Positions 2,818 to 27,233 of a stretch of DNA of 64,000 bases are shown here, piece by piece. Position numbers and translations under genes: made by a program. Source of the DNA: a virus (lineage: Duplodnaviria; Heunggongvirae; Uroviricota; Caudoviricetes); the IMG/VR virus record IMGVR_UViG_3300037851_000461, positions 59,219 to 123,218 of that record; one strand, written 5' to 3'. A model generated the notes under the pieces. That model saw only the letters and a list, made by a program, of their open reading frames with translations. It did no database searches and was not told the origin of the DNA. Every line of letters starts with the position of its first letter. The first letter of the stretch is position 1.

Positions 2818-3070
2818 GTTTGTTTTCTCTGTTTAGGTTAATGTTCCAGTGAAGGAACACCCCTATACATCATGAACCGTGCCAACTATCACGTATATAT
2901 GGATTTTACACGTAAGTCGTTAGTAATCAACGTATTTTTTCTAAAGTGGAGCCATCACAGGGATTTGCGCCCTGCTTTCAACATTACCAATGTCGCGTGT
3001 CGCTACCTACACTTTGACGGCATTCATCCAACACAAACGTCGAGCAGACCATTCGCATCAGATGGGTTTT

Positions 3071-4314: not shown

Positions 4315-4480
4315 ATGAAATTGGTGCTGTTCTCTCCGGCCGTCACCGTTCCGAGGACACGCGCTTCACTGCGACCTCGGTATCGTATTGCGGTTTACGT
4401 TAATTGGAGCCGTCAGCATGTTCAAAGTGCATTTCCTCCTGATAAGAAGGTGTCCTAGAATTAGACGATAACGGCATAAA

Positions 4481-4636: not shown

Positions 4637-4786
4637 ATAAATTGATGGAGTCCCTGTGATGCTATCACTAGCCTTGCCCGTTGTGGCTGGCGGACCCCGT
4701 AAATGGTGGTACCTCTCGGATGTGCGCCGAGTTCGTCATTCTTATGAGGAATGTCCATAACTACACATGGTCAGGTACCATAAAGA

Positions 4787-4931: not shown

Positions 4932-5017
4932 TGGGAGCCGAGGTGGGATTCAAACCCACGAAGCCTTGCGGCGAAACCTTATGAGAGTTCCTGTTTTGTT
5001 CACTTACCTACCCGGCC
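4932..5017 (-). tRNA. tRNA with anticodon loop CTCATAA (CAT) and 14-nt variable arm (GCCGCAAGGC hairpin)
   Basis: GGCCGGG/CTCGGCT acceptor (two G-U); T-loop TTTGAAT; CCA encoded. Confidence 0.45.
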
Positions 5018-6200: not shown

Positions 6201-6397
6201 TTGGTAGGAGCATCGAAACCAATATGCTGCTCGACCCAAAATGGTGGAAGCGACGGGAATTTCACCCTAGTCTCAACGTGGATCATCATACTCCGTGACT
6301 TTTAACGCGTGTATTCCTCATGTTTCCGATGTGTTGATCGACGACATATCTCCAGCCTATGTTCGCTGGTGTTCTGGTATTGAACTACGCTTCCAAA

Positions 6398-6473
6398 TGG
6401 CGGGATGTACCGGTGCTGCCCCGGCTGTCTCTACCTTGACAGGGTAGCGAGTCTGCTGTTCTTCTTACACCCC
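6398..6473 (-). tRNA. tRNA-Asp(GTC) with non-canonical T-loop (GGCAGCA) and weak D-arm
   Basis: GGGGTGT/ACATCCC acceptor (one G-U); anticodon arm CTACC-CTGTCAA-GGTAG; CCA encoded. Confidence 0.5.
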
Positions 6474-6476
6474 AAA

Positions 6477-6551
6477 ATGGTCAGCCCGGAGGGAGTTGCA
6501 CCCTCACTAATACGCCCCGAACGTATTGTGCTGCTGTTCAACACTACGGAC
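6477..6551 (-). tRNA. tRNA-Pro(CGG), T-loop TGCAACT
   Basis: CAGTCCG/CGGGCTG acceptor (one G-U); anticodon arm ATACG-TTCGGGG-CGTAT; CCA encoded. Confidence 0.6.
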
Positions 6552-6636
6552 TGATAACACGCCTTCAGGTCGCTAAGGTGTGGAAGACTTCTCCAACACT
6601 CTTCCCTCAACGAGCGTGATTTTTTTCTTAGCACTA

Positions 6637-6711
6637 ATGGTAGCGGGACACGGAGTTGAACGCGTGCTTGACGGCTTATGAGACCGTTGACCTCCCCGAA
6701 GTCGATCCCGC
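6637..6711 (-). tRNA. tRNA(CAT), Met or Ile2 type, class I; T-stem poorly paired
   Basis: AGCGGGA/TCCCGCT acceptor exact; anticodon arm ACGGT-CTCATAA-GCCGT; CCA encoded. Confidence 0.55.
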
Positions 6712-6716
6712 TATAA

Positions 6717-6799
6717 ATGGATGCAGACCCGAGAATCGAACTCGGCATAGCGTATGCAGAGGTTATGAGCCTCTTCAGCGTCCCTTGGCTTGTGCCTGC
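6717..6799 (-). tRNA. tRNA(CAT) with 12-nt variable loop
   Basis: TGCAGGC/GTCTGCA acceptor (one G-U); anticodon arm AGAGG-CTCATAA-CCTCT; T-arm CCGAG-TTCGATT-CTCGG; CCA encoded. Confidence 0.55.
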
Positions 6800-6940
6800 A
6801 ATAAAATTGTATCCATGTCTGAGCCGACTACCTACGGCAAGGATTGTGCCGTGCCAATCTGGTGCACACCAATGCCTTATCGTGGCACGTATGCATTACC
6901 TTGGCGTGACTCCTTTCTCAAGGGAGCGATGTATTCAAAA

Positions 6941-7017
6941 GTGGCGGGGGCCGTGGGATTCGAACCCACACTAAAACTCGTTCGAAGCGAGTGTGACTTT
7001 CCGGTTGCCGAGACCCC
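6941..7017 (-). tRNA. tRNA-Arg(TCG)
   Basis: GGGGGTC/GGCCCCC acceptor (one G-U); anticodon arm ACTCG-CTTCGAA-CGAGT; T-arm GTGGG-TTCGAAT-CCCAC; CCA encoded. Confidence 0.7.
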
Positions 7018-7127
7018 CATAGTCAAGTAAATCATGTGGCACCACAAATTATCATCTTCGTTCGGCCCACACGGGTAGCGTGGAGAATTTCCTCTCACCG
7101 AGGAACTCATTCTTGTGGATTTTCTTT

Positions 7128-7203
7128 CACGTTTGCCATTACTTGAAATGGTCCCGACCCCCGGTTACGCTCCGGGCTCTCATGCTCTTCAGGCACGCGC
7201 AAT
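7128..7203 (-). tRNA. tRNA-Phe(GAA) with non-canonical T-loop (AGCGTAA)
   Basis: CCCGATC/GGTCGGG acceptor (one G-U); anticodon arm CGTGC-CTGAAGA-GCATG; CCA encoded. Confidence 0.5.
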
Positions 7204-7342
7204 CACTAGGTCTGCCTGATCGGGATAAGTGCTTGTCGAATTTCGCTCCGCTGGGTAATTTCATCCCAGAAGGGAACCGAAGTTCTCCGGATGGAAACTG
7301 TCCATCTGCGTTTTCTTCCGCCACAGATTACTCTCCGACAAA

Positions 7343-7420
7343 TTGGTCGTGCTGGAGGGATTCGAACCCACACTTGATACGGTCTGAACGTATTGCCATC
7401 TCCCAATTGGGCTACAGCAC
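7343..7420 (-). tRNA. class-I tRNA with anticodon CAG (a Leu codon reader on a short-variable-loop scaffold), A73
   Basis: CGTGCTG/CAGCACG acceptor exact; D-arm GCCCAATTGGGAGATGGC; anticodon arm ATACG-TTCAGAC-CGTAT; canonical T-loop; CCA encoded. Confidence 0.6.
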
Positions 7421-7425
7421 GATAA

Positions 7426-7503
7426 TTGGTCGCGTCGGTGGGATTCGAACCCACACTTTGCATGTTTTGAGTATGCTGCCATCTCCCAATTGGGCTACGA
7501 CGC
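7426..7503 (-). tRNA. class-I tRNA with anticodon CAA (a Leu codon reader), paralog of 7343-7420
   Basis: CGCGTCG/CGACGCG acceptor exact; identical D-arm; anticodon loop CTCAAAA; T-arm GTGGG-TTCGAAT-CCCAC; CCA encoded. Confidence 0.6.
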
Positions 7504-7655
7504 GATATTGAGTCAAGACAAATGGTTGATTACTCCATCAAACAACTCGTACGGTATTACTACCGATTGAAGAATTTTTGCTACGTGACCGATCTCGGGT
7601 GTCTATCACGGACACTTGCTCGGGCTGAAGTAGAATTTAGTTTATCTCAACTCAA

Positions 7656-7739
7656 CTGGTGGGCGAGGAGGGACTCGAACCCTCAAGCCTTTCGGCATTG
7701 GCTTCTAAGACCAACGTGTATGCCATTCCACCACTCGCC
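7656..7739 (-). tRNA. tRNA-Leu(TAG), class II
   Basis: GGGCGAG/CTCGCCC acceptor exact; anticodon arm TTGGT-CTTAGAA-GCCAA; long variable arm; T-loop TTCGAGT; CCA encoded. Confidence 0.7.
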
Positions 7740-7744
7740 CATAA

Positions 7745-7820
7745 ATGGTCAGTCCCACGGGATTCGAACCCGCACCGAAGGCTTCCAAAGCCGACACGCT
7801 ACCAAGTTACGCCAAGGACT
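7745..7820 (-). tRNA. tRNA, probably Pro(TGG), weak anticodon stem
   Basis: CAGTCCT/GGGACTG acceptor; D-stem GCGT/GCGT; anticodon loop TTTGGAA; T-arm GCGGG-TTCGAAT-CCCGT; CCA encoded. Confidence 0.5.
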
Positions 7821-7828
7821 GATAAAAA

Positions 7829-7904
7829 ATGGTGGGAAACGAGGGATTCGAACCCCCAACCTTCTCGGTGTAAACGAGCTGCGCTAACCGTTGCGCCAGT
7901 CTCC
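7829..7904 (-). tRNA. tRNA-Val(TAC)
   Basis: GGGAGAC/GTTTCCC acceptor (one G-U); D-arm GCGCAACGGTTAGCGC; anticodon arm GCTCG-TTTACAC-CGAGA; canonical T-arm; CCA encoded. Confidence 0.7.
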
Positions 7905-7956
7905 CAAATCCCACACCTGTACAAGTGTGGGGGCCGGCTGAAAAACCGGGGATGTA

Positions 7957-8040
7957 ATGGTCGGCATGGAGGGATTCGAACCCACAGCGGATAGAACGTT
8001 TTAAGTGTCCCGGTTGTGCCATTTCCCTAATCCACACGCC
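7957..8040 (-). tRNA. tRNA, 84 nt, possibly Leu(TAA); D region atypical
   Basis: CGGCGTG/CATGCCG acceptor (one G-U); anticodon arm GGACA-CTTAAAA-CGTTC with one mismatch; T-loop TTCGAAT; CCA encoded. Confidence 0.4.
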
Positions 8041-8047
8041 GAAAATA

Positions 8048-8120
8048 AATCGTTGAGTGGGATTCGAGCCCACATCACCCGCTTGGAGGCGGAAGCATTC
8101 ACCAGTTATGCTGACCAACG
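8048..8120 (-). tRNA. tRNA-Trp(CCA)-like with 6-nt anticodon loop (CTCCAA); no CCA encoded
   Basis: TCGTTGG/TCAACGA acceptor; anticodon arm TCCGC-CTCCAA-GCGGG; T-arm GTGGG-CTCGAAT-CCCAC. Confidence 0.45.
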
Positions 8121-8206
8121 AAATTCTCATTGACAAGATTACCTGCGTTCCTGTTGGTGCTGCGTCTCTCAGCAGGTGAGTCGTCGGCAGCACACACAAT
8201 GAAATT

Positions 8207-8290
8207 TGGAGCCAGAGTCGGAAGTCGAATCCGATGAAGTGATCTACTTCGTCACCGTAGCAGTAATTCCGCCGGGACAGCCCATGAGAA
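8207..8290 (-). other. tRNA-like element (T-arm TCGGA-TTCGACT-TCCGA, CCA encoded); cloverleaf not resolved
   Basis: T-arm and 3' acceptor only. Confidence 0.3.
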
Positions 8291-8296
8291 AAATGA

Positions 8297-8380
8297 TGGA
8301 CCGAACGGGAGTCGAACCCGATTGCATCTCTGGCATAAAGTTGGTGGGTATTCTCCACATTTCCAGATTACCTCTCGGGT
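8297..8380 (-). other. tRNA-like element (T-arm CGGG-TTCGACT-CCCG); acceptor imperfect
   Basis: T-arm and 3' acceptor; no clean 5' partner. Confidence 0.3.
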
Positions 8381-8395
8381 CTGGCGTCTTGTAGT

Positions 8396-8974
8396 TTAGA
8401 CGACATGCGTGGTAGCCGAGGTGGGACTCGAACCCACAACCCTTTCGGGAGAAGTTTTTGAGACTTCCGTGTATGCCGTTCCACCACTCGGCCACTTACT
8501 TTTTGGTCGCTTCCAACTGTCTGTAAGAGCATGGCAATTACAGCATAGAAGATTCAAATTTTTTTCTTCATTGTTTGTCTTGTCACCGTCAATGTGATGT
8601 ACTTCAAGCGGGATCGGCTCTCCCAACCACTCGGTACCATCACATCCTTCACATCGATGACCTCTCTTACGAATTAGATGCGGTTTGAGATGTGAACCCT
8701 TGGTGTAATCGGACCAATCTTTCAATTGCTGACCGGCGTTCCATCCTTGCCCGGTCCAGTGAGAAGTGTCAACTGAAAGACGTTGGAGGATTCTTTTCAT
8801 ATTTCCATAACTTCCCCCAGCAGGCTTCAAGTTCAATTCTTTTAGCAAACCTGCTAGACTCTTAACTCGTTTAGCCGCTTCTATCACATCATTATCGGTG
8901 TAGTTTCTATAAGTTCTCATACCAATAAGTATATGATAGGAAGACGTGTCTGTAAAGTAAAAAACGTCTTCCAA
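8396..8974 (-). CDS. HNH homing endonuclease; the 3' end reads through tRNA-Leu(CAA) on the same strand; first ATG at 8920
   Basis: HRCEGCDG...EVHHIDGDKTNNEEKNLNLLCCNCH HNH motif. Confidence 0.7.
   Translation of the reverse strand: MEDVFYFTDTSSYHILIGMRTYRNYTDNDVIEAAKRVKSLAGLLKELNLKPAGGSYGNMKRILQRLSVDTSHWTGQGWNAGQQLKDWSDYTKGSHLKPHLIRKRGHRCEGCDGTEWLGEPIPLEVHHIDGDKTNNEEKNLNLLCCNCHALTDSWKRPKSKWPSGGTAYTEVSKTSPERVVGSSPTSATTHVV
8410..8493 (-). tRNA. tRNA-Leu(CAA), class II
   Basis: GGCCGAG/CTCGGCT acceptor (one G-U); anticodon arm GAAGT-CTCAAAA-ACTTC; long variable arm; T-loop TTCGAGT; CCA encoded. Confidence 0.7.
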
Positions 8975-9082
8975 ATTCGTTGAGGAGGCACATCCCCCAA
9001 TCGATCATCGCCGACCGATCTTCCCTTGAACCGCTCAGAGGGTTTTGATGGCGATCCCTCCGCTAGAACGTCCTTTTGAAGT

Positions 9083-9157
9083 TGGTAGTCCCGGAGGGAT
9101 TCGCACCCCCACACTACGCTAATCAGGCATAGGTGCTGCTAATTACACTACGAGACC
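9083..9157 (-). tRNA. tRNA-Ile(GAT), T-loop TGCGAAT
   Basis: GGTCTCG/CGGGACT acceptor (two G-U); anticodon arm TATGC-CTGATTA-GCGTA; CCA encoded. Confidence 0.55.
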
Positions 9158-9253
9158 ATAAATGGAGTACCCAGCCCGTGTTAGGGGCAATTTTGACTTT
9201 ACACTCTTAACCTTTCGGGACGTGTTTTGCACTCAGAGTTAGGGCACATAAAT

Positions 9254-9340
9254 TGGTGCTGATGAGAGGATTCGAACCTCCACGGGTTACCCCACAACCT
9301 TCTCAGGATTGCGCGTGCTACCAAAGTTTCGCCACACCAG
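9254..9340 (-). tRNA. tRNA-Leu(GAG), class II, second copy
   Basis: GCTGGTG/CATCAGC acceptor (one G-U); D-stem GCG/CGC; anticodon arm CAATC-CTGAGAA-GGTTG; long variable arm; canonical T-loop; CCA encoded. Confidence 0.65.
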
Positions 9341-9346
9341 CATAAA

Positions 9347-9422
9347 TGGTACTCCGTGTAGGGATTGCACCTACCTGATGGCTGTGTGTAAGACAACCGT
9401 CCACTCTAGCAGACCCACGGAG
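9347..9422 (-). tRNA. tRNA-Val(TAC)-like, second copy, T-loop TGCAATC
   Basis: GCTCCGT/ACGGAGT acceptor (one G-U); anticodon arm GTTGT-CTTACAC-ACAGC; CCA encoded. Confidence 0.5.
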
Positions 9423-9435
9423 CATAAATTTGAAA

Positions 9436-9525
9436 TGGCGGAAGGCATCGGTCCCGACCCGAAGCGGTTATTAGCCGCCCAAGTGTTTAGCAAACACTGC
9501 CCACATCCCAGCGGGTTTACCTTCC
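9436..9525 (-). tRNA. tRNA-Ser(GCT), class II
   Basis: GGAAGGT/GCCTTCC acceptor; anticodon arm AGTGT-TTGCTAA-ACACT; long variable arm; CCA encoded. Confidence 0.7.
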
Positions 9526-9597
9526 ATTTTCTGCCCATCCGTTTCCGAAGACTGACAAGGGAGCGACCCTATGCTTACCGGTGAATCTGACAGAAAT

Positions 9598-9688
9598 GGC
9601 GGAGACGGTGAGATTCGAACTCACGGGGGCTTTTAGACCCCTTCGGTTTTCAAGACCGATGCAATAAACCACTCTACCACGTCTCCAA
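9598..9688 (-). tRNA. tRNA-Ser(TGA), class II
   Basis: GGAGACG/CGTCTCC acceptor exact; anticodon arm TCGGT-CTTGAAA-ACCGA; long variable arm; T-arm GTGAG-TTCGAAT-CTCAC; CCA encoded. Confidence 0.75.
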
Positions 9689-9691
9689 ATG

Positions 9692-9767
9692 GTGGACCCG
9701 ACAGGACTTGAACCTGCGACATCCTGCTTGCAAAGCAGATGCTCTTCCAACTGAGCTACGAGCCCAA
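9692..9767 (-). tRNA. tRNA-Ala(TGC) with G3:U70
   Basis: GGGCTCG/CGGGTCC acceptor; D-arm GCTCAGTTGGAAGAGC; anticodon arm TCTGC-TTTGCAA-GCAGG; T-loop TTCAAGT; CCA encoded. Confidence 0.7.
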
Positions 9768-9784
9768 ACATAACTAACGAAATG

Positions 9785-9860
9785 GGGTGATGCACGGGCT
9801 TTGCTCCCGTCCCCTCAGCTTCACAGGCTAATGTGCTAGACTACCCACACTCGCACCACC
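9785..9860 (-). tRNA. tRNA-His(GTG) with C73 discriminator; non-canonical T-loop AGCAAAG
   Basis: GTGGTGC/GCATCAC acceptor; anticodon arm TTAGC-CTGTGAA-GCTGA; CCA encoded. Confidence 0.6.
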
Positions 9861-9866
9861 ATAATG

Positions 9867-9942
9867 GTCCTCCGACCGGGATTCGAACCCGGAATTTCAG
9901 TTTCGTAGACTGATGTGATATCCAGTTTCACCATCAGAGGAT
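9867..9942 (-). tRNA. tRNA-Arg(ACG)
   Basis: CCTCTGA/TCGGAGG acceptor (one G-U); anticodon arm TCAGT-CTACGAA-ACTGA; T-arm CCGGG-TTCGAAT-CCCGG; CCA encoded. Confidence 0.7.
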
Positions 9943-9955
9943 TAAATTTGCATTG

Positions 9956-10047
9956 GTAGTTCTGCTCGGACTTGAACCGAGACACGGCCCACATCTAGGG
10001 CATACAGTTTATAAGGCTGTCGGTGCTACATTACACTACAGAACCAT
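9956..10047 (-). tRNA. class-II tRNA (92 nt) with anticodon loop CTTATAA (TAT?); identity unclear
   Basis: GGTTCTG/CAGAACT acceptor; D-stem GTG/CAC; long variable hairpin GCCC/GGGC; T-loop TTCAAGT; CCA encoded. Confidence 0.45.
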
Positions 10048-10176
10048 AAGAAAATCATGGATAGTTTTGTTCGGTCCACGATACTGTACACATACCGTTT
10101 TTCCCCTGTCTGTATCTACCCACATGTGAGCTACCCGACACGGTGCGCATCGTTGAGAGGCGTCGCGAGTCAAATG

Positions 10177-10255
10177 GTCTCCGTTGTAGGCGGTTTCACC
10201 CTACTTACACCACCTGCGTTGGTGGGGATTCCTTCGGCTTCATCTTAACGGAAAT
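10177..10255 (-). other. tRNA-like element with 9-nt T-loop and atypical anticodon loop (AACGCAG); possible pseudo-tRNA
   Basis: TTCCGTT/AACGGAG acceptor pairs; CCA encoded. Confidence 0.3.
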
Positions 10256-10257
10256 TG

Positions 10258-10335
10258 GTCGCCGGTGCACGACTCGCACGTGCTTTCTCCATCCTCCTAT
10301 GGATGGCAATTCGTTTACTTCATCCTCCCAGCGAA
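10258..10335 (-). other. tRNA-like element with 8-nt anticodon loop (CATAGGAG); T-loop TGCGAGT
   Basis: Acceptor pairs 6 of 7; stem CCATC/GATGG; CCA encoded. Confidence 0.3.
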
Positions 10336-10338
10336 ATG

Positions 10339-10416
10339 GTCGGAGTAGAGGGATTCGAACCCACGACCTTCTGCTCCCAAAGCAGACGCACTAGCCAGAC
10401 TGTGCTACACTCCGAA
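10339..10416 (-). tRNA. tRNA-Pro(TGG)
   Basis: CGGAGTG/TACTCCG acceptor (one G-U); D-arm GCACAGTCTGGCTAGTGCG; anticodon arm TCTGC-TTTGGGA-GCAGA; T-loop TTCGAAT; CCA encoded. Confidence 0.6.
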
Positions 10417-10496
10417 ACTATTCGATAGCGGATTGAAGCGCCCGCATTTCCACCTGAAATGGTGGCGTCCTTAACTCTTAGACGATATCGAAATTG

Positions 10497-10572
10497 GTGG
10501 TAGGCGTGGGTGCCGACCCCACTATCTCACGCTTATCAAGCGTGTGCTTTTGCTGCTAAGCTACCCTACCAT
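10497..10572 (-). tRNA. tRNA-Ile(GAT)-like, second copy; non-canonical T-loop GTCGGCA
   Basis: Acceptor pairs 6 of 7; D-stem GCT/AGC; anticodon arm CACGC-TTGATAA-GCGTG; CCA encoded. Confidence 0.45.
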
Positions 10573-10792
10573 TATTGGTCATCTCAGCCAGTTTCAATTA
10601 CCAGCAGCGACCAACAAATTGGAGCCGTCTGTGAGACTTGCACTCACTTTGACCTCGTTACAAGGGAGGTGCCTAACTATTCGAGCCAAGACGGCATATC
10701 AATCAAAACGTGATACCATTTCACTAAGCGCCAGTATAACCCCCGGCGTGGACCGCGATGAATCGAACACCGCAACTTTCTGATTGAAATTG

Positions 10793-10879
10793 GAAGCACG
10801 TACTGGAGTTGCACCAGTTATGGTTAGACCATGCTACTGCTTTGCAGGCAGACCCCTTACTGTTCGGGCAACGCGCTAT
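10793..10879 (-). tRNA. class-II tRNA (87 nt) with Cys-type anticodon loop CTGCAAA; T-loop TGCAACT
   Basis: AGCGCGT/ACGTGCT acceptor (one G-U); long variable hairpin CATGG/CCATA; CCA encoded. Confidence 0.45.
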
Positions 10880-10884
10880 GAATG

Positions 10885-10971
10885 GTGCCCCATGTAGGTA
10901 ACGCTCCTACCCGGCCCGAAGGCGATTGATTTACAGTCAATCCCACGTACTTTAGTGGTCTAATGAGGCGA
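10885..10971 (-). tRNA. tRNA-Tyr(GTA), class II; T-loop AGCGTTA
   Basis: GCCTCAT/ATGGGGC acceptor (one G-U); anticodon arm GATTGA-CTGTAAA-TCAATC; long variable arm GCC-TTCG-GGC; CCA encoded. Confidence 0.65.
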
Positions 10972-10998
10972 AAGTTTTAGGGTCACTTCCTACACACG

Positions 10999-11062
10999 GA
11001 TCATGTGGGAATCGAACCCACCTCTCCGGTTCAACAACCGGTATCCTTCCGATAGACGAATG
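10999..11062 (-). other. tRNA-like element (T-arm GTGGG-TTCGATT-CCCAC) with 6-nt anticodon-type loop; no acceptor partner, no CCA
   Basis: T-arm plus hairpin CCGGT-TGTTGA-ACCGG. Confidence 0.25.
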
Positions 11063-11133
11063 GTCCTCGGTCGCTCCCCTTCGGGTCACACTCGACATGT
11101 AGCTATCACATCAAATCACCCGTTGTACAAATG

Positions 11134-11215
11134 GCAGGAACGTGAGGATTCGAACCCCTTAGCCGAAGCGACTGTTTTGGAGACAGTGTGCAATCCCACT
11201 CGCGAGCGTTCCTAT
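11134..11215 (-). tRNA. tRNA-Trp(CCA), 82 nt with 11-nt variable loop
   Basis: AGGAACG/CGTTCCT acceptor exact; anticodon arm ACTGT-CTCCAAA-ACAGT; T-loop TTCGAAT; CCA encoded. Confidence 0.6.
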
Positions 11216-11221
11216 AAAATG

Positions 11222-11301
11222 GTCCCTCCAGCGGGGTTCGCACCCGCGACCTCCGGGGTTTCAATCCGGCGCTCTACGTTGATTCTGAGCTACAGAGGGA
11301 T
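11222..11301 (-). tRNA. tRNA-Phe(GAA)-like, second copy; T-loop TGCGAAC
   Basis: CCCTCTG/TGGAGGG acceptor (two G-U); D-arm GCTCAGAATCAACGTAGAGC; anticodon loop TTGAAAC; CCA encoded. Confidence 0.55.
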
Positions 11302-11851
11302 AATTTCTTCATTATCGGGGTATGGCACACTCTCAAATGAGTGTTGAATGGCCCATGCGGCGCGTTAGGGTCTCGTGACATGGTGACTCCATTATTAGCC
11401 AATTAACCGATCCAGTCGGACTCTGGTTAACGAAGAAATTGGTGCATCATCCCGGTAACGATCCGAGAACTCAAGTTTGGAAAACTCACGTGTATCCATT
11501 AACACCTATGATGCATATCCGTTGTGGGCATCGACTCCCATCTCTTGAAGGCTCAAATGCGATGTGCGGGGTGCCTTCCGTGCTGCCAGATAAATCTACT
11601 TCCCCTACCCTTTATGATATTGTGTTGTATTTCGACCGAAACGCCTGTCCAACCTTTCTGTTGGTTCACGTTTTTTATGGTTGCCCATCGCATTGTTGCG
11701 GTTCGGTTTACTTCTCAACCTTTACATATACTCTCAGTTACCTTGAAGTATCACATATACACTAAACGAAATTGGCTGCTGTAGTCACCTGTTCGGTAAC
11801 GTGTCGTCGATACTCGCGAGATTGGAAACGACGACTGACTCAGCAATGAAA

Positions 11852-11927
11852 TGGTAGCCCCTCCGGGTCACGATCCCGGCTCTTCTGCTTGAAAGGCAGA
11901 CGAACTCAACCATTATTCTAAGAGGCC
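11852..11927 (-). tRNA. tRNA-Glu(TTC); non-canonical T-loop ATCGTGA
   Basis: GGCCTCT/AGGGGCT acceptor (two G-U); anticodon arm TCTGC-CTTTCAA-GCAGA; CCA encoded. Confidence 0.55.
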
Positions 11928-11944
11928 ATAAAACTAACCGAAAG

Positions 11945-12019
11945 TGGTAGCCCGAGAGGGTTTCGATCCCTCTTCTCATGGGTGAAAACCAAGTATCCTA
12001 GCCACTAGACGACCGGGCC
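11945..12019 (-). tRNA. tRNA-Glu(TTC)-like, second copy; T-loop ATCGAAA
   Basis: GGCCCGG/TCGGGCT acceptor (two G-U); anticodon loop TTTTCAC; CCA encoded. Confidence 0.5.
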
Positions 12020-12031
12020 ACATAAAAGTAT

Positions 12032-12160
12032 TGTCAATCTTGGGACTTGAACCCAAAGGTCTGCCGAAGACTTAACGTGGAGTTGAACCACACACCGCCA
12101 TGGATGAGCGTTAGCTCACATTTGGATTTGAACCAAATCCGGTTCCGATTACCGATTGAC
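12032..12160 (-). other. 129-nt composite tRNA-like element: two T-arms (TTCAAAT and TTCAAGT) between perfectly complementary distal 7-mers (GTCAATC/GATTGAC)
   Basis: Outer acceptor-like pairing exact; internal 7-bp hairpin TGTGAGC-TAAC-GCTCATC; no CCA. Confidence 0.3.
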
Positions 12161-12164
12161 AAAG

Positions 12165-12238
12165 TGGCGGGATATGCGAGACTCGGACTCGCTTCTTTGA
12201 CGTGACAGGCCAATGTAATACCCATATACCAATACCCC
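12165..12238 (-). tRNA. tRNA-Asp(GTC); T-loop TCCGAGT
   Basis: GGGGTAT/ATATCCC acceptor (one G-U); D-stem GTA/TAC; anticodon arm TTGGC-CTGTCAC-GTCAA; CCA encoded. Confidence 0.6.
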
Positions 12239-12442
12239 GTGAAATTCATGATGCTAACGTCGAAGCACCAACCGGCGGGACTACCCACTGTTGTTTTTAA
12301 CCCTCGGGAGGTTAGAAATTAATCCGTGTTCCTTCACTACGCCAGACCACAACCGTCGTTATGCGTGGGCGAGGATTGCTACCAAAAGACGGGTGACAAT
12401 TGATTCCGTCAATAATGAACCCTTCTGCTCAGGAACACGAAA

Positions 12443-12528
12443 TGGTGGGAAAGGCAGGAATCGAACCTGCGATCCGTGCGGATTACATAGTTTACAGCTA
12501 TGCGCCTAGCCATTCGAGCGTCTCTCCC
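12443..12528 (-). tRNA. tRNA-Tyr(GTA), class II, second copy
   Basis: GGGAGAG/CTTTCCC acceptor (one G-U); anticodon arm CATAG-CTGTAAA-CTATG; long variable arm; T-arm GCAGG-TTCGATT-CCTGC; CCA encoded. Confidence 0.65.
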
Positions 12529-12542
12529 ATAAATCAAAAAAT

Positions 12543-12615
12543 TGGTGGACCAGATGGGAGTCGCACCCACCACACGAATCTTGCGAGGATTCATCGCCTC
12601 TACGGAACATGCCAG
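12543..12615 (-). other. tRNA-like element (T-arm GTGGG-TGCGACT-CCCAT, CCA encoded, hairpin GAATC-CTCGCAA-GATTC); 5' acceptor not found
   Basis: 3' two-thirds of a cloverleaf recognisable. Confidence 0.3.
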
Positions 12616-12770
12616 CCCATTGTCGGGGGTGCTTTTGCCCCCTCCGGTTAACCTTTGCGCACCGTGAGGTAGTAGTTTGACAGGGAAGCAGTCGCCGAAT
12701 TTTTGTATTCCCCGAGGTTTCGTTCACCTTATTGCCAAGCAAAGCTCGTGAACCTAACTGCCACTAATGA

Positions 12771-12847
12771 TGGTGGACCGTGCGGGTACCGCCCCCGCCT
12801 GATTTCAGTTTGCAAAACTGACGAACACTCTAGCATTCCCACAGCCC
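12771..12847 (-). tRNA. tRNA-Ala(TGC) with G3:U70, second copy; non-canonical T-loop GGCGGTA
   Basis: GGGCTGT/ACGGTCC acceptor; anticodon arm TCAGT-TTTGCAA-ACTGA; CCA encoded. Confidence 0.55.
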
Positions 12848-13397: not shown

Positions 13398-13485
13398 TGG
13401 TGCCTCGGAAGGGACTCGCACCCCCGTTGGTCTTTCGACATCCGCTTAAAAGGCGGGACTGATCGCTACTACAGGATACCGAGGC
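13398..13485 (-). tRNA. class-II tRNA (88 nt) with anticodon loop CTTTTAA (TTT?); T-loop TGCGAGT
   Basis: GCCTCGG/CCGAGGC acceptor exact; long variable hairpin GTC-GAAA-GAC; CCA encoded. Confidence 0.45.
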
Positions 13486-13701: not shown

Positions 13702-13775
13702 TGGCTGCTCGAACTGGACTCGCACCAATACAAGATGGTTAACAGCCATCCGTGCTACTTTAACACTACCGAGCA
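13702..13775 (-). tRNA. tRNA with anticodon loop CTGTTAA (Asn GTT), third copy; T-loop TGCGAGT
   Basis: TGCTCGG/TCGAGCA acceptor (one G-U); D-stem GTG/CAC; anticodon arm GATGG-CTGTTAA-CCATC; CCA encoded. Confidence 0.55.
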
Positions 13776-17266: not shown

Positions 17267-17453
17267 TATCCAGCCAAAAGTGAAGGGCGGAAATCATCTC
17301 AATGGATTCTTTGCGACTGCCGTCTTTTCCAATGAGCCAAATCGTGTGCTCATTCGCTTCAATGATTGTTCCTTCGCCATACATGAAGGATTGTGAATCC
17401 TGCGGAGTCAAAAAAGTGAGGAGAATCTTGCCGATTACTTTGTATCTTTTCAT
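17241..17453 (-). CDS. small hypothetical protein, 70 aa
   Basis: ORF positioned between the NADAR and HAD-like genes. Confidence 0.3.
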   Translation of the reverse strand: MKRYKVIGKILLTFLTPQDSQSFMYGEGTIIEANEHTIWLIGKDGSRKESIEMISALHFWLDSGAIEEIA

Positions 17454-18004
17454 AGTGGTGTCAGCCCGTTTTCCGGAACATGCTTTACCGAATCTCTGAT
17501 ATACATCAGGATGCTTCCGAGTTTGTTCTGCCCGCCCTTGCGAACGTCAACGCCCCAATAGGTATCGCCCCAATGGTTTGTTTCTTCGAGGTGCTTCTTT
17601 CCGGTTTCAAGGAGTTTCTTGCGAAGGTCATTATTTCGCATGAACTTGTCAAAGACGACATAAAACATTACCGAGTATTTGACCTTATCCCACTCATCGG
17701 CGGTGTATCGCTTAGTGAATCGCTCTTCCTGCCAGAGATTCTTGCTCTCGTATGGAGTACAAAGTTGGAAAGGCTCACGCTGGTCTTCGACGACCTTCGC
17801 TGCTTGATAAGCATTCTCAGAGGAGACGAATCCCAAAAAGTCATAGTGAACTTCGCATACGTGGAAATTGGAGAGCCAGCGGTAATCTCCAAAGAATCCC
17901 TTGATCTGCTTGTCGTCGTGAACGGCATAGGATCGCCAGTCACCTTTCTTGTATGTGCCCTTCGTTCCGTCAACTCCGATTTCGTCGAATAGCCAATCGC
18001 TCAT
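17450..18004 (-). CDS. NADAR (YbiA-like, DUF1768) domain protein
   Basis: FFGDYRWLSNFHVCEVHYDFLGFVSSENAYQAAK...HWGDTYWGVD...NKLGSILMYIR. Confidence 0.75.
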   Translation of the reverse strand: MSDWLFDEIGVDGTKGTYKKGDWRSYAVHDDKQIKGFFGDYRWLSNFHVCEVHYDFLGFVSSENAYQAAKVVEDQREPFQLCTPYESKNLWQEERFTKRYTADEWDKVKYSVMFYVVFDKFMRNNDLRKKLLETGKKHLEETNHWGDTYWGVDVRKGGQNKLGSILMYIRDSVKHVPENGLTPL

Positions 18005-21890: not shown

Positions 21891-22472
21891 TTATTTTTCC
21901 TCTATGCCGAATTTCTGTTTCACCATTGTCAAACGGGGTTCGGCAACGCCCGTGCCATAAATCCAGCGAAGGTGGTCGCACTCACGAATGCCGTAACTTC
22001 CGAGTTCGATTCCCTTGTAAACAATGTCGTATGAATGCTTTTCGACCGGAGTTCGGTCAACCAACAAGTCGGGCGTGTCTTTCGACAATCCCAATGAATC
22101 CAAAAAGAACATGTACGCATGGTGAATCATGTTATGAAGGGATTCTTCGTTGACGACTTGGGTATCGATCAACTCCGTCTTGATGAAATACTTTGTGTGA
22201 AGTGAGTCGAAGTTTTCATGACGGAAGCACGGTGTCGTTGCCTGAAACTTTCCTTTCGGCAGAAACCCCTTCAGGTAGAGATACAGAAATGATTGTTCTG
22301 CCGAAGCAACAAGAACCTTACCATTGTCATGAACAAGTTGAAACTCTCGTGCACCCTTGGGCTTTGTGATATCGGAAACTTCCTTGGTCACCGTCCACGG
22401 GGCTTCGATCCGCTTGAACCCGCACTGCTCGTAATGTCGAATTGCGTCTGATATGGTTTCGTAGTTGATCAT
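21891..22472 (-). CDS. class II aminoacyl-tRNA-synthetase-like / AsnA-like catalytic core (193 aa)
   Basis: Motif-2-like TPCFRHENFDSLHTKYFIKTE and motif-3-like GIELGSYGIRECD. Confidence 0.45.
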   Translation of the reverse strand: MINYETISDAIRHYEQCGFKRIEAPWTVTKEVSDITKPKGAREFQLVHDNGKVLVASAEQSFLYLYLKGFLPKGKFQATTPCFRHENFDSLHTKYFIKTELIDTQVVNEESLHNMIHHAYMFFLDSLGLSKDTPDLLVDRTPVEKHSYDIVYKGIELGSYGIRECDHLRWIYGTGVAEPRLTMVKQKFGIEEK

Positions 22473-23454: not shown

Positions 23455-24129
23455 TCATTCTCCGTATTTCTTGGCTTCTTCTTCGCCGAAACGGCTCTTG
23501 AGTGAATCTAAATACTTCTGTGTCTTGATCTTACACATCCAAACTCCACCGGCAAAGGCTCCGGATCGCTCCGTTCCCTTGCACAGAACGCCTTCTTTAA
23601 CGTCGTAAACTCCTGCACGAACGTCACTTATGAGTTTGTCGGAGAGGTTTCCAGTGTAAATTACCCTTGGCGTTTTGACAATAGTGGCACATTGCTTGAG
23701 AAACTCTTGTGGCGTCAAAAACTTACTGACCTTGTGCCCTATCATCAAATCGAAAAGAACAAATTCCATAGGGTCTCCAGCGGCGTGTATTCCGGCATAG
23801 GAGTTGGGTCCCAGATACTCCCCGAAGGCTATTGCCTCCCGTTCGTTTCTATAGTCATCCCGAAGGAGTTTTTCCAACGGCTCGCTGAACTGGTTCATGA
23901 AAATATCCACCACCCCACCCAAATGCGGATGGGTCTTGTCAATCAATTGGGTTCGACTGCCAAAGAGGTTCCAGCCCTTCTTGGCGGTGTATTTTACCCG
24001 AATGTTTGACCCGTCGAGTTTATCAAAGGCTATGCACGACTTGCGCGGAGCCTTCGACGAGTTGATAATTGATGGATACTCTTTCACTATGCCAGTTTTA
24101 TTGGAACATGTGTCGAACGTCAAGCCCAA
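23455..24129 (-). CDS. ligase-family nucleotidyltransferase (RNA/DNA ligase adenylyltransferase domain), 224 aa
   Basis: Motif I AFDKLDGSN, motif IV EGVLCK, motif V MCKIKT. Confidence 0.55.
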   Translation of the reverse strand: MGLTFDTCSNKTGIVKEYPSIINSSKAPRKSCIAFDKLDGSNIRVKYTAKKGWNLFGSRTQLIDKTHPHLGGVVDIFMNQFSEPLEKLLRDDYRNEREAIAFGEYLGPNSYAGIHAAGDPMEFVLFDLMIGHKVSKFLTPQEFLKQCATIVKTPRVIYTGNLSDKLISDVRAGVYDVKEGVLCKGTERSGAFAGGVWMCKIKTQKYLDSLKSRFGEEEAKKYGE

Positions 24130-24567: not shown

Positions 24568-26136
24568 TTAGACGGCAGCGTTCTTGCGAACTTCGTCGAA
24601 GGTGTATGTCTTGGTGACTTCGCCGTTCTCGAACACGGTTTCAAGAACGTCGGGGCGAGGATCGCTCTCCGGAACGGTATCCCAGCCAAGACCGTGTGCA
24701 CCAGCCACACGAACCAACTTGAGACGACCCTTCTTCGAAGCCTTGCTCAAATCCTTCGGGTTCTTGAAAATATCGAACCAACGGTCGTTGCGCTTCTGTG
24801 CACAACTCTTGAAGGCGAACCTCTGCGTGTCGCGATTGACCTTCTGGAGAAGACCACCACCCATGCCGAAGCACGCGAGGTTGTCTGTGCTCAACTTGGC
24901 ATCCTTGAGAGCCTGAAGAATCTTGGTGATTCCATCAAGATCGATGCCGTCGCCCCAAAGAACACGAACCTTCGGGTTAATTGTGAGGTATCCCTTGTCG
25001 TTGACCGTGTAGCCGAGTTTGTCGGCGAGTTTCTGCACGATCCACACCATCTCGGCTTCCGGCGTCATGTGAGTCGGAGTGATCGAATCGGGGCGAACCA
25101 CGAAGATACCATCACGATTGAGAATCGCATTCTTGAACTTTCCACCAACAAGATTCTCAACGAAGTTGTAGATATCATAACTATCAGCAACGACCGAGAG
25201 AATACCAGTCGGATATTCACGAAGAAGGTTGTCGAGAACTTCCTCCTCACCATTGACACCGAGAGCGGTCATGACCGAGTGCTCAGTAGCAGCGACCGAG
25301 TAGGCAAGCCCCTCGGGATTGGCGCTGTAGTAGAACATCGCGAATTCCATGGCAGGAACCGTGTCGGTGCCCATGAAGTTGACCAAGTGAGCGGCACCAC
25401 CGACACATGCACCTTCGTCGGTGTTGACTCCACGGTAGCCGAAGTCGTGCAACTTGAAGTTGAGAAGGAAATCGACCGTGCCGGTTTCCTCAAGGAACTT
25501 CTTGATAACAACCTTCGTCTGACGGCTCAGAGCGGCGACCGTCGAAGGATACCATACGTGAGTCAAAAGCGACTCAAGTGCGTTGGTGAGCCAGAAGCAC
25601 TTCTCGTCGGTATTTTCAACCGTCATGAGAACGTTTCCGGTCGGCACCGGGGTACCCTCCGGAACTGCCTTGATGCGAACCGGGAGTTTTCCACCGTGAG
25701 CCTTGAGGATATGATTCCAACCGTTGAAGTTGAACATTTCCTTCTGACCCGTCTCGGCGAAGTAACGCTTCCAGTCGATACGGATTTCAGGATTGATAAC
25801 CTGACGGGCACCAATCTGCTGACCATCCGGCGTGAAGGTCGGAGCAACTGTCATAAGCGACAGGTGCTTGTTGAAGATGTACGGCGTGATCTTCTCAATG
25901 GTCGTCTGACCGAAGTGCAGAGCGACGAGAAGACGAGCCTGATTCAGTTTATCCTCCGTGACTCGCACACCTTCAAGGTAAGCCTTGAGGATGTACTGAA
26001 GACCGAAAAACGGGGTCTGGTCGAACTTCGCACCTTTGCGGCTCTCGAAGTAACTATAGACCGCCTGAGTTCCAGCGGGATACTGATTCCAGTGATTCAG
26101 TTTATAACTGTCAGTCTGTGTGATGATGTTAGTCAT
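24568..26136 (-). CDS. nadV: nicotinamide phosphoribosyltransferase (NAMPT/NadV)
   Basis: N-terminal TDSYKLNHW, overall PRTase pattern, 522 aa. Confidence 0.85.
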   Translation of the reverse strand: MTNIITQTDSYKLNHWNQYPAGTQAVYSYFESRKGAKFDQTPFFGLQYILKAYLEGVRVTEDKLNQARLLVALHFGQTTIEKITPYIFNKHLSLMTVAPTFTPDGQQIGARQVINPEIRIDWKRYFAETGQKEMFNFNGWNHILKAHGGKLPVRIKAVPEGTPVPTGNVLMTVENTDEKCFWLTNALESLLTHVWYPSTVAALSRQTKVVIKKFLEETGTVDFLLNFKLHDFGYRGVNTDEGACVGGAAHLVNFMGTDTVPAMEFAMFYYSANPEGLAYSVAATEHSVMTALGVNGEEEVLDNLLREYPTGILSVVADSYDIYNFVENLVGGKFKNAILNRDGIFVVRPDSITPTHMTPEAEMVWIVQKLADKLGYTVNDKGYLTINPKVRVLWGDGIDLDGITKILQALKDAKLSTDNLACFGMGGGLLQKVNRDTQRFAFKSCAQKRNDRWFDIFKNPKDLSKASKKGRLKLVRVAGAHGLGWDTVPESDPRPDVLETVFENGEVTKTYTFDEVRKNAAV

Positions 26137-26195
26137 TGTAGTGATTTCCTTATCTCTATCAGGTTTCTATATTGGCTGAACCCTTATTTGGTATC

Positions 26196-27233
26196 TTAGG
26201 TCTTCGCCGAAGTGTTTGTTTTACGTGCCCATTCGACGAGCATTTCCATCAGAGGAATGTGCTCCGGTACGATCGACCACGGAAGAGGAGTAATCGTCTG
26301 AGTACCGGTGTCGGTCTTGATCGTCTCCTGTTTCTGGAGGAAGTTTGCCAGAGGAAACCAGCGCACTTCCGCAATATCGTCATCTGCCCGAGCCATGCCG
26401 AACAAGCGGTGGGCAAGGTAGAAGTGAGTGATGATCTTGTCAGTCTCGCCGCGATAGCGCCAGTCGTCGATCTTCTTACTACCGATGTAGGTCAAGTCTC
26501 CGACCGAAAGCCCGCCTGCGGTCTCTTCATAGAGTTCACGCTTGGCAGCGGCTTCGTAACTGTCATCATTCGGCGAAACGAATCCACCAATGAAGCGGTA
26601 CAACTGCTCATTGGGTTTGCGAGCCAGAAGGATCGAACCTTCCTTGTCGTCATACACCACGATATCCACGGTCGGGATAGCAGCGGGATAACGCTGGTGT
26701 GTGGCCCAGATTGCACCGGCTCGGAACAAAGGCGAGGATTGTGGAGCCGCAGCGAGTTTGGCTCGTGTCTCCGTTCCCGAAACAAATCGGGTGGCGACCA
26801 ACTCACGGGTCTCGAAATGACCCTTGTAAGCGGTCAGGAAAGAATCACGGCTACCGTAGAGAACGGCGGTGTCATTGGGGGCAAGGTTCTCATGGATAAG
26901 ACCATCGAGTTTCTTGCTCCAATCCTCGTCCGACGCCATATCCTTGATATAGTGGATCGAGAGATTGGGGAAATCCTTGGGAGGATAGACCTCCATAAGC
27001 ATCTGCTTACGAGGATTGAAATCCAGCGGGTTGCTGGTAGTGCCCCGGAGGGGCGAAAGCCCAAGAACGATCATGACCTTGGGATGTGCAGCGATAACGC
27101 TGTCGATTAACTCTTTATGAGCCTCGTGGAGTTCGTGGACCTGAAAACGTCCGACGACTACACCTACGTTGTGTGCTTTTTGTTTCACGTTCATATCTTT
27201 ATCTGAATGTTGATTGTTTGGTGTCTCAGGCAT
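26196..27233 (-). CDS. natV: bifunctional NMN adenylyltransferase / Nudix hydrolase (NadM/NatV-like)
   Basis: GVVVGRFQVHELHEAHKELI NMNAT motif and Nudix box GGFVSPNDDSYEAAAKRELYEETAG. Confidence 0.85.
   Translation of the reverse strand: MPETPNNQHSDKDMNVKQKAHNVGVVVGRFQVHELHEAHKELIDSVIAAHPKVMIVLGLSPLRGTTSNPLDFNPRKQMLMEVYPPKDFPNLSIHYIKDMASDEDWSKKLDGLIHENLAPNDTAVLYGSRDSFLTAYKGHFETRELVATRFVSGTETRAKLAAAPQSSPLFRAGAIWATHQRYPAAIPTVDIVVYDDKEGSILLARKPNEQLYRFIGGFVSPNDDSYEAAAKRELYEETAGGLSVGDLTYIGSKKIDDWRYRGETDKIITHFYLAHRLFGMARADDDIAEVRWFPLANFLQKQETIKTDTGTQTITPLPWSIVPEHIPLMEMLVEWARKTNTSAKT

Follow-up and report, generated by a model that had tools for sequence, protein, structure and literature searches.

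The tRNA array and its genes with unusual T-loops

The window analysed here is a stretch of 64,000 nucleotides (positions 59,219 to 123,218 of IMG/VR record IMGVR_UViG_3300037851_000461) from an uncultured T4-like phage, with genes for rIIA, a family B DNA polymerase, a clamp-loader ATPase, DNA and RNA ligases and NAMPT. Between positions 612 and 13857 it carries an array of about 60 tRNA-like units, all tRNAs being on the minus strand and often only 4-8 nt apart; nearly every unit ends in an encoded CCA followed by a T-rich spacer, and a gene for an HNH homing endonuclease (8396-8974, minus strand) has been inserted amid the tRNA genes, in the manner of the heg genes of phage T5. Canonical tRNA genes are interleaved with genes that have an unusual T-loop, and about one third of the array genes share a design with A at position 18 of the D-loop and G at position 55 of the T-loop. 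The sequence comparisons described below strongly suggest that these genes belong to a coherent and widespread class of phage tRNAs that function in translation.

ARAGORN found 46 genes in the array and the covariance model RF00005 of Rfam found 42 at its gathering score; the union with our own relaxed cloverleaf scan, which accepts any 7-nt loop between 4 or 5 pairs, amounted to 60. A TTC-type T-loop was present in 33 of the 52 units scanned in the window, in line with the statement in the first-pass annotation that most of the tRNAs carry loops of the TTCGAAT type. That annotation listed at least nine exceptions, and all nine named units are indeed present with intact acceptor, anticodon and T stems, a CCA end and the 7-nt loops ascribed to them. 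The set of exceptions is larger, however, comprising 16 CCA-ended cloverleaves with G55, two weaker units with G55 (a Lys-like unit at 13398-13485 and a unit at 10256-10333) and seven units with other departures (T-loops ATCGAAA, ATCGTGA, ATCGTTA, GTCGGCA, GTCGGGA, TCCGAGT and TTTGAAT). The positions given for the nine are low (3') ends; the Phe gene lies at 7149-7224 and not at 7128 (about 21 nt off), and of the two genes with a TGCAACT loop that were assigned to Pro the one at 6478-6553 is a Pro CGG tRNA, whereas the one at 10791-10877 is a Cys tRNA (anticodon GCA, U73).

Among the genes named at first, tRNA-Asp GTC (6398-6473) has the T-loop GGCAGCA (G54 G55 C56 A57 G58), the D-loop AACAGCAG (A18 G19), A8:A14 and a weak D stem, and tRNA-Pro CGG (6478-6553) combines TGCAACT with TGAACAGCA (A18 G19), is called by ARAGORN, reaches 42.2 bits with RF00005 and has the cloverleaf as its minimum-energy fold (z = -2.7). 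The Phe GAA gene at 7149-7224 carries AGCGTAA (A54 G55 C56 G57 U58) with ACCTAGTGA (A18 G19). The sole His tRNA of the array (anticodon GTG, 9783-9859) has G-1 and C73, the T-loop AGCAAAG (A54:A58, G55), the D-loop GGGTAGTCTA (A18 G19) and G8:G14; homologues of it were found in L003 and L062 (L-numbers denote loci fetched from outside the window, L215 being Mycobacterium phage Rey, NC_041971). The Cys gene (10791-10877) has the D-loop AACAGTA (A18 G19) and scores 42.5 bits with RF00005. Its variable arm is 17 nt long with a 5-bp hairpin, giving a class II-like body, and the Cys tRNAs of L002 and L003 have short variable loops. A class II tRNA-Tyr GTA (10883-10969), called by ARAGORN, carries AGCGTTA (A54:U58, G55) and ACTAAAGTAC (A18 G19), and a tRNA-Ala TGC with G3:U70 (12771-12847) carries GGCGGTA (G54:G58, G55), GCTAGAGT (A18 G19) and G8:G14. 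The remaining two of the nine keep U55: tRNA-Ile GAT (10495-10570), with GTCGGCA (G54:G58), the D-loop AGCAGCAA without GG, an RF00005 score of 46.1 bits and the cloverleaf as minimum-energy fold (z = -3.2), and tRNA-Glu TTC (11852-11927), with ATCGTGA (A54:U58) and GG in the D-loop, which is found by both ARAGORN and RF00005 and has a homologue with the same loop in L003 (12231-12306).

Further G55 units are a tRNA-Ala CGC with G3:U70 (12543-12618; T-loop TGCGACT, D region CA TGTT CCGTAGAG GCGA with A18 G19, weak D stem), of which a homologue in phage Rey has the same D arm but GG and TTCAATT; a tRNA-Asn GTT (13702-13775; TGCGAGT, D-loop TAAAGTA with A18 G19), a tRNA-Thr TGT (10620-10695; TGCAAGT, GAATAGTT with A18 G19) and a tRNA-Ile GAT (9083-9157; TGCGAAT, AATTAGCA with A18 G19), all three found by ARAGORN and RF00005; a tRNA-Phe GAA (11220-11299; TGCGAAC), found by RF00005, in whose 12-nt D-loop AGAATCAACGTA positions 18-19 are not clearly callable; and a tRNA-Val TAC (9347-9423; TGCAATC, GCTAGAGT with A18 G19, G8:G14). 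A tRNA with anticodon CAT (Met or Ile2; 4704-4779) has the T-loop CGCACAT (C54:C58, G55), which recurs in a CAT tRNA of L062, and the D-loop GTGTAGTT (A18 G19). Two more Thr tRNAs, both matched by RF00005, are that with GGT (2947-3021; CGCAAAT with C54:A58 and G55, AGGTAGCG with A18 G19) and that with CGT (1103-1177; TGCAAGT, AGATAGCG with A18 G19). The weaker unit at 13398-13485 is like a Lys TTT tRNA, with TGCGAGT, TAGTAG in the D region and a long variable region; its RF00005 score of 21.9 bits is below the gathering score.

The other departures include four units with GG in the D-loop besides the Glu gene at 11852: a second tRNA-Glu TTC (11945-12019; ATCGAAA with A54:A58 and U55) and a tRNA-Asp GTC (12165-12238; TCCGAGT with C55), both found by ARAGORN and RF00005, a tRNA-Gly TCC (11440-11514; ATCGTTA with A54:U58 and U55), called by ARAGORN, and a class II tRNA-Ser GCT with G73 (9436-9525; GTCGGGA with G54:G58 and U55), called by neither ARAGORN nor Rfam. 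The last one, at 4932-5017, has a class II Leu-like body with a CAT anticodon, the T-loop TTTGAAT (U56) and the D-loop GTGAAC (G18 A19), and thus an A19:U56 swap. ARAGORN reports this gene as tRNA-Met, yet it is 78% identical to the Leu-CAA gene at 8410-8493 and has C73; if charged by leucyl-tRNA synthetase it would misread AUG, or AUA if C34 is modified; alternatively it may be a decayed copy.

In all 16 G55 units and the seven other variants 6-7 of the 7 acceptor positions are paired and the CCA is encoded; in the units listed the anticodon and T stems are both of 5 bp, each closing a 7-nt loop, and a discriminator base is present. Standard gene finders nevertheless miss many of them. Scoring with RF00005, which the first-pass annotation had proposed as a check, gave a divided picture, with nine of the 16 G55 units above the gathering threshold of 29 bits (33.8-49 bits) and seven unmatched or below it. 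Even on short stretches no RF00005 match at E<=10 was obtained for Asp 6398, Phe 7149, Val 9347, Ala 12543 and Ala 12771; Met 4704 had no RF00005 match listed and no ARAGORN call, and His 9783 had only a partial RF00005 match of 16.3 bits. ARAGORN calls five of the 16, and the seven genes missed by both programs include the only His tRNA of the array. A covariance model trained on 61 G55 tRNAs, all from other contigs (R1), in contrast gave 54.4 bits for Phe 7149, 47.4 for His 9783, 46.0 for Asp 6398, 44.8 for Met 4704, 38.5 for Ala 12771, 27.8 for Val 9347 and 23.7 for Ala 12543. R1 also matches the Lys-like unit (19.2 bits) and weak units that lack CCA or have aberrant anticodon loops (10420-10492, 4408-4475, 2235-2315 and 10259-10333).

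Co-variation of the D- and T-loops in the window and in other phages

In an ordinary tRNA, G18 is inserted between the T-loop bases 57 and 58 and bonded to U55 (as pseudouridine), with further pairs formed by G19 and C56 and by U54 and A58. In the odd loops C56 and a purine at position 57 are retained and the principal change is from U55 to G; C56 is present in all window units but 4932-5017, where U56 is matched by A19. GG is found in the D-loop of all 33 units with a TTC-type loop, whereas in 15 of the 16 G55 units the allowed positions lack GG and show AG in its place, mostly in the form TAG or CAG. Counted over the window, G18 occurs with U55 in 34 units and A18 with G55 in 15, A18 is combined with U55 once, and the combination of GG with G55 is found in no tRNA. 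The pair 54:58 is U:A in 41 units, A:U in four, G:G in three, A:A in two and C:A and C:C in one each, position 54 being A, G or C in eight of the 16 G55 units, and G8:G14 or A8:A14 replaces U8:A14 in several odd tRNAs. The conserved U54, U55, A58 and G18 of canonical tRNA are thus not found as a set in the G55 class.

The same rule was observed outside the window. Public collections were searched with the exact 17-nt T arms of the window His, Asp and Phe genes, and 194 neighbouring tRNAs from 33 viral or metagenomic loci were collected, with the seeds excluded and duplicates removed. Among these tRNAs the four combinations G18/U55, G18/G55, A18/U55 and A18/G55 were counted 121, 1, 2 and 53 times. 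Position 19 pairs with 56 as G:C in 168 cases, A:U in five and C:G in five, with few mismatches, the C:G cases being those in which a TGGGATT loop is combined with TAC in the D-loop; 54:58 is U:A in 146, A:U in 14, G:G in 13, A:A in six, C:A in five and C:C in five. The loops of the G55 class are of a limited number of types (AGCAA 18, TGCGA 16, TGCAA 15, AGCGT 12, GGCAG eight, TGGGA five, GGCGG four, and others), and the class spans anticodons of 19 amino acids. On two metagenome contigs, L058 (Ga0180082_1001167) and L051 (Ga0315288_10021391), every tRNA detected is of the G55 type (12 of 12 and eight of eight, respectively), and several carrier contigs are 250-280 kb long. The Arg-TCT, Arg-CCT and Ser-TGA tRNAs of L051 and L058 have TGGGATT or TGGGAAT as T-loop and TAC or CAC in the D-loop, that is, a reversed C19:G56 in addition to A18/G55.

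The His T arm alone gave 21 matches in a tRNA context, with seven different anticodons and with A18 G19 in all 21; the arm lay within a tRNA in 18 of its 112 matches in metagenome contigs and in three of the four in viral contigs. By contrast, none of its 70 matches in 185,579 bacterial and archaeal species-representative genomes (GTDB) lay in a tRNA, and as 70 is the number expected by chance (about 69 for a 17-mer in 596 Gb) the raw match counts there are meaningless.

When the nearest neighbours across the two classes were compared, about six homologous pairs, from five isoacceptor families, were distinguished by exactly the matched switches. For instance, two Phe genes of L196 that are 130 nt apart have ATCTAGTGA with AGCGTAA and ATCTGGTGA with ATCGAAA, respectively. 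Further pairs are two Ala genes of L110, the window Ala-CGC gene at 12543 together with an Ala gene of Rey that lacks annotation, one pair each for Asn and Pro, and an Arg pair in which G18 G19/U55 C56 has become A18 C19/G55 G56. The Rey gene (L215 5995-6070; 61855-61930 of NC_041971), situated within the tRNA array of that phage, is a tRNA-Ala TGC with G3:U70 and a weak D arm like that of window 12543-12618.

Comparison with other phages, also proposed in the first-pass annotation, thus revealed the same dependency between positions 18 and 55 in the sample of 33 loci, and it likewise revealed compensated stems in the Phe family. In an alignment of the window Phe gene at 7149-7224 with six homologues from five other contigs, 96% of the cells are paired, and both partners have changed in 16 of the 22 pairs, among them all seven of the acceptor stem and all five of the anticodon stem; values as high as those observed did not arise in any of 500 shuffles.

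The decoding elements of tRNAs are retained in the class. U33 and a purine at position 37 are present in every window unit, and in the G55 class overall U33 was found in 91 of 94 tRNAs, the purine at 37 in 93 of 94, G53:C61 in 88 of 93 and the purine at 57 in 94 of 94. Synthetase identity marks follow the anticodon: G3:U70 is present in 10/10 Ala tRNAs of the class and in 0/84 of the others, C73 in 5/6 His tRNAs (the window His tRNA having G-1 as well) against 2/88, and A73 in 8/8 Phe tRNAs, while the window Cys tRNA has U73. His, Phe, Thr, Cys, Ile-GAT, Glu-TTC and Gly-TCC are represented in the array by odd types only, with no canonical copy, and decoding of the full set of 20 amino acids by the array is reached only if the odd genes are counted. 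Compared with the canonical isoacceptors of the array, the odd genes have an identity of about 0.6-0.7, the same as any two tRNAs.

A probable compensated elbow and its alternatives

From the sequences we consider it probable that the odd-loop genes are working phage tRNAs with rewired, compensated elbow contacts. In such a tRNA G55 would replace U55 and A18 would replace G18, while G19:C56 would be kept or swapped to A:U or C:G; 54:58 would be formed as U:A, A:U, G:G, A:A or C:A and position 57 would stay a purine, the changes at 18:55 and 54:58 being coordinated. A loop of the type YGCRA, GGCRG or similar with an inserted adenosine would then preserve the L-shape. The first-pass annotation had assumed that T54-psi55-C56 is lost and that the D-loop/T-loop contacts are broken, which is contradicted by the conservation of C56 (with U56 facing A19 in 4932-5017) and by the matching of the change at 55 with one at 18; the 18:55 contact appears to have been replaced rather than lost.

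T-loops of a comparable type are known from other RNAs. In riboswitches for flavin mononucleotide (FMN) and for cobalamin their consensus is YGNRA (UGNRA in 88.7% and CGNRA in 10.9%) and the base inserted between T-loop positions 4 and 5 is an adenosine in 99.96%; in the env8 crystal structure two hydrogen bonds link the inserted adenosine with the sugar edge of the position-2 G, one T-loop of rRNA is GGAAG, and tRNA is exceptional in having U at position 2 (bioRxiv 10.1101/2022.12.26.521914). The G55 class shows the general pattern (a five-base loop with G or U at position 2, here G, and a purine at position 4, followed by two bulged bases), although the AGCGT type, with A:U at positions 1:5, falls outside the published YGNRA consensus, yet is recurrent. 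The TGCRA, CGCAA and GGCRG loops with A18 therefore look like the common non-tRNA form of the T-loop set in a tRNA, with C56 free for G19. By analogy with the riboswitch T-loops, A18 would be inserted between 57 and 58 and bonded to G55, a three-dimensional equivalence that we infer. Also shared with the FMN, cobalamin and rRNA T-loops are the succession Y/G, G, N, R, A/G with two flipped-out bases and the C:A and G:G variants of the 1:5 pair; in those RNAs, however, the receptor is a loop of the riboswitch or an internal loop and not a D-loop, and position 3 is under no constraint to pair with a counterpart of G19. Reading G55-C56-R57-A58 as a plain GNRA tetraloop was rejected as the principal explanation, because it leaves the matched change to A18 and the 19:56 swaps unexplained.

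With canonical tRNAs (RF00005 and the 25 of T5) the class has in common the 7/4/5/5-bp layout, the 7-nt anticodon loop, U33, R37, G53:C61, C56, R57, G19 and CCA, as well as the synthetase identity marks and an array with an HNH endonuclease gene as in T5. It differs in having G55 for U55 and A18 for G18, often A:U, G:G, A:A or C:A at 54:58, and sometimes G:G or A:A at 8:14. The yeast suppressor tRNA SUP4 does not tolerate single changes at 8-14, 18-55, 19-56 or 54-58, each of which destroys its function (PMC4117946); that single elbow changes are inactivating there, and isolated ones hence selected against, would explain why only matched changes are seen here.

Partial departures of other kinds are also found elsewhere. 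A54:A58 is a feature of eukaryotic initiator tRNA (PMC7912444), and the annotated His and Glu tRNAs of Rey (ATCGTAA) are A54:U58 variants; both share with the window tRNAs a pairing of 58 with a base other than U54, but they keep U55 and G18. In T5 the 25 annotated tRNAs have U55 and GG with one departure, Ile1 (TTTAAAT, G18 A19), phiKZ is canonical and CcrBL9 has a single Arg tRNA with A19:U56. These T5 and CcrBL9 tRNAs (TTTRAxT, G18 A19) show the same A19:U56 swap as window unit 4932-5017 and an Ala tRNA of L003, with 18:55 staying G:U. Mitochondrial type II tRNAs and tRNA-Pyl lack G18 G19 and the T-psi-C consensus (PMC7609411); there the docking of the D- and T-loops is lost or replaced and the loops are short or variable, whereas the loops of the G55 class have standard sizes and its 19:56 pair is kept and co-varying, which argues that docking is retained. 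The A18/G55 form is absent from the reviews of T-loop conservation and non-canonical tRNAs (PMC7912444, PMC7609411), a full-text literature search (with most subscription journals outside its scope) yielded no description of A18/G55 phage tRNAs, and the class is apparently undescribed so far.

The preservation of the anticodon loop (U33 in 91/94, a purine at 37) and of identity marks that match the anticodon and that a decoy would not need makes it improbable that the odd genes encode tRNA-like RNAs made for purposes other than translation, e.g. decoys against tRNA-cleaving defence, primers or regulators. It is true that T5 annotates several 'tRNA-like stable RNAs of unknown function' between its tRNAs, that the window array holds other structured elements that are not tRNAs (e.g. 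12024-12162) and that an altered elbow could plausibly hamper the binding of the ribosome or RNase P. Nevertheless, the outer G19:C56 pair, the face used by RNase P and the ribosome, is either retained or exchanged for another Watson-Crick pair, and it is the odd genes that supply His, Phe, Thr and Cys, otherwise missing from a decoding set that is nearly complete.

Slightly less probable still is decay of the canonical set by drift of the T-loop consensus, the second possibility raised in the first-pass annotation beside that of a structurally distinct family. Degenerate units without a proper anticodon loop or CCA do exist in the array (10420-10492, 4405-4475, 10175-10253 and 2235-2315), the D stems of Asp 6398 and Ala-CGC 12543 are weak, and many odd units are scored poorly or not at all by Rfam and ARAGORN. 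The loop changes are, however, ordered and paired with D-loop changes, the stems are intact and compensated across phages, the identity elements are kept, and dozens of unrelated contigs show the same types of loop, some of them having this type exclusively; Rey shares even the weak D arm of 12543. As a description of the whole set, decay also disagrees with the lack of any close canonical parent and with the seven isoacceptor types that occur as odd genes only, while a distinct family is supported by the ordered loop types, the co-variation with the D-loop, the recurrence in many phages, the compensated stems and the identity marks. Compensated stems, retained identity marks, the lack of close canonical copies and the amino acids served by odd genes only speak against both decaying duplicates and a role outside decoding.

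An artefact of wrong stem boundaries, the objection foreseen in the first-pass annotation, or of a permissive scanner can practically be dismissed: a low-threshold scan also reports chance cloverleaves in coding DNA, but at the survey threshold there were three hits in shuffled against 140 in real sequence, each unit has a 7-bp acceptor abutting a 5-bp T stem with a 7-nt loop and then a discriminator and CCA, Rfam and ARAGORN independently give the same boundaries for nine of the 16 G55 units, sliding the partner strand in the Phe family by any offset lowers pairing from 96% to about 40%, and the boundaries are not in doubt because the cloverleaf is the unconstrained minimum-energy structure of eight of the 12 odd units tested.

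Several points weigh against working tRNAs with a compensated elbow as the explanation for all odd genes. The calls of positions 18-19 come from our own rule for D-loops of variable length, in which GG was given priority, and two window genes do not follow the scheme, Phe 11220 having G55 without a clear A18 and Ile 10495 being the only unit with A18 and U55. The external loci were found through three odd T arms, which yields a sample enriched for carriers of the class, and no G55 tRNAs were seen in the cultured phages inspected (T5, and phiKZ, CcrBL9 and Rey, whose tRNAs had BLAST matches to G55 arrays). The Fisher p-values for the association of 18 with 55 (7e-12 in the window and 1.5e-41 in the external set) treat related sequences as independent and overstate significance, the honest event count being about six switch pairs. 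The D stems of Asp 6398 and Ala-CGC 12543 are poor, and since the array also holds clearly degenerate units, some odd members may be non-functional.

What drives the change is a separate question. Given the established specificities of the enzymes concerned, G55/A18 tRNAs cannot receive pseudouridine-55 (TruB) or Gm18 (TrmH), and tRNAs without U54 or U8 cannot receive m5U54 (TrmA) or s4U8 (ThiI). Moreover, toxins that cleave the T-loop are known, among them a Burkholderia CdiA-CT with its cut between positions 54 and 55. The change may have come about by neutral drift along a path of compensated changes, or it may bring an advantage such as escape from host factors or freedom from the host's modifications. 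Switches that occurred repeatedly, and in both directions, within single contigs agree with two nearly neutral designs that can be converted into one another. That the A18-G55 elbow is a selected, phage-specific architecture, working without psi55, m5U54, Gm18 and s4U8 and/or escaping enzymes or immune nucleases that read the elbow, is a tentative idea to which we assign a rather low probability; the G55-only contigs and the presence of the His T arm in tRNAs of metagenome and viral contigs, against none of 70 GTDB matches, are hints of such a role and not proof. Avoidance of s4U8 as the driver was rejected, as U8:A14 is kept in 43 of 54 external G55 tRNAs. Pfam and PHROG scans of about 40 neighbouring proteins revealed no tRNA-modifying enzyme tied to the G55 class.

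Genomic surroundings and implications

Among 50,697 phage records, megablast and blastn found no close relative of the window region or of the concatenated odd tRNAs, only weak matches to ordinary tRNAs, and a protein search with a 540-aa neighbouring gene found no related loci. The nearest DNA polymerase is that of Microcystis phage Mel-JY01 (41% identity), which has no tRNAs in its first 50 kb. A stretch identical to the window is present in the Logan assembly of run SRR12687606.

Several other elements of the array are out of the ordinary (all on the minus strand). Between tRNA-Asp and tRNA-Glu lies a structured element of 139 nt (12024-12162) with a 9-bp closing stem and several hairpins, three of them T-arm-like (GGTTCAAnTCC); its minimum free energy is -42.7 kcal/mol (z = -2.8, with none of 200 shuffles folding as well), it has no Rfam match and it recalls the stable RNAs of the T5 tRNA region mentioned above. 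Two near-identical 78-nt tRNAs at 7344-7421 and 7427-7504 have the Leu anticodons CAG and CAA and a 5-nt variable loop (a class I body), whereas a long variable arm is normal in bacterial Leu tRNAs. At 8049-8121 and 10997-11066 ARAGORN reports irregular anticodons, of two bases ('cc') and four bases ('gttg'), respectively; the 4-base anticodon may belong to a tRNA of the frameshift type or to a defective copy. Weak tRNA-like units, in which acceptor-like stems are combined with aberrant anticodon or T arms and some of which are without CCA, are located at 10420-10492, 10175-10253, 10256-10333, 4405-4475, 2235-2315 and 6321-6390. They are probably decayed tRNA copies or tRNA-derived RNAs, and are distinct from the nine units named in the first-pass annotation.

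Some of the neighbouring genes may also be connected to tRNA. A 193-aa protein encoded at 21891-22472 (minus strand) matches PHROG 4806 'histidyl tRNA synthetase' (E = 4e-43), with a faint Pfam tRNA-synt_2 match; it is far below the size of a full synthetase and lies 8 kb from the array, of which the sole His tRNA is of the odd type. At 23455-24129, 41064-42125, 24568-27233 and 44925-45347 (all minus strand) the window encodes two RNA ligases (one with a PHA02142 OB fold and an RNA_ligase domain), NAMPT and two NUDIX proteins, and at 17450-18004 a NADAR protein. The presence of RNA ligases, NAMPT, NUDIX and NADAR proteins suggests modules for tRNA repair and NAD salvage, as is typical of phages confronted with defences that cleave tRNA or deplete NAD.

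The G18-psi55 and U54-A58 contacts are taught as near-universal in cytoplasmic tRNA and are built into gene-finding models. The array described here, together with about 30 further phage contigs, indicates that the elbow has a second solution that is consistent in itself and is used in some cases for the whole tRNA set. The inability of these tRNAs to carry psi55 or Gm18 raises the question whether phages become independent of host factors that read the elbow, or are shielded from them. The numbers of tRNAs in phages are underestimated, and if the adaptive interpretation were true a sizeable fraction of their tRNA genes would be hidden from annotation. The arrays would also constitute a natural 'mutate and rescue' experiment on the tRNA core, in which the pairing rules between a T-loop and its receptor may be tested in an RNA that takes part in translation.

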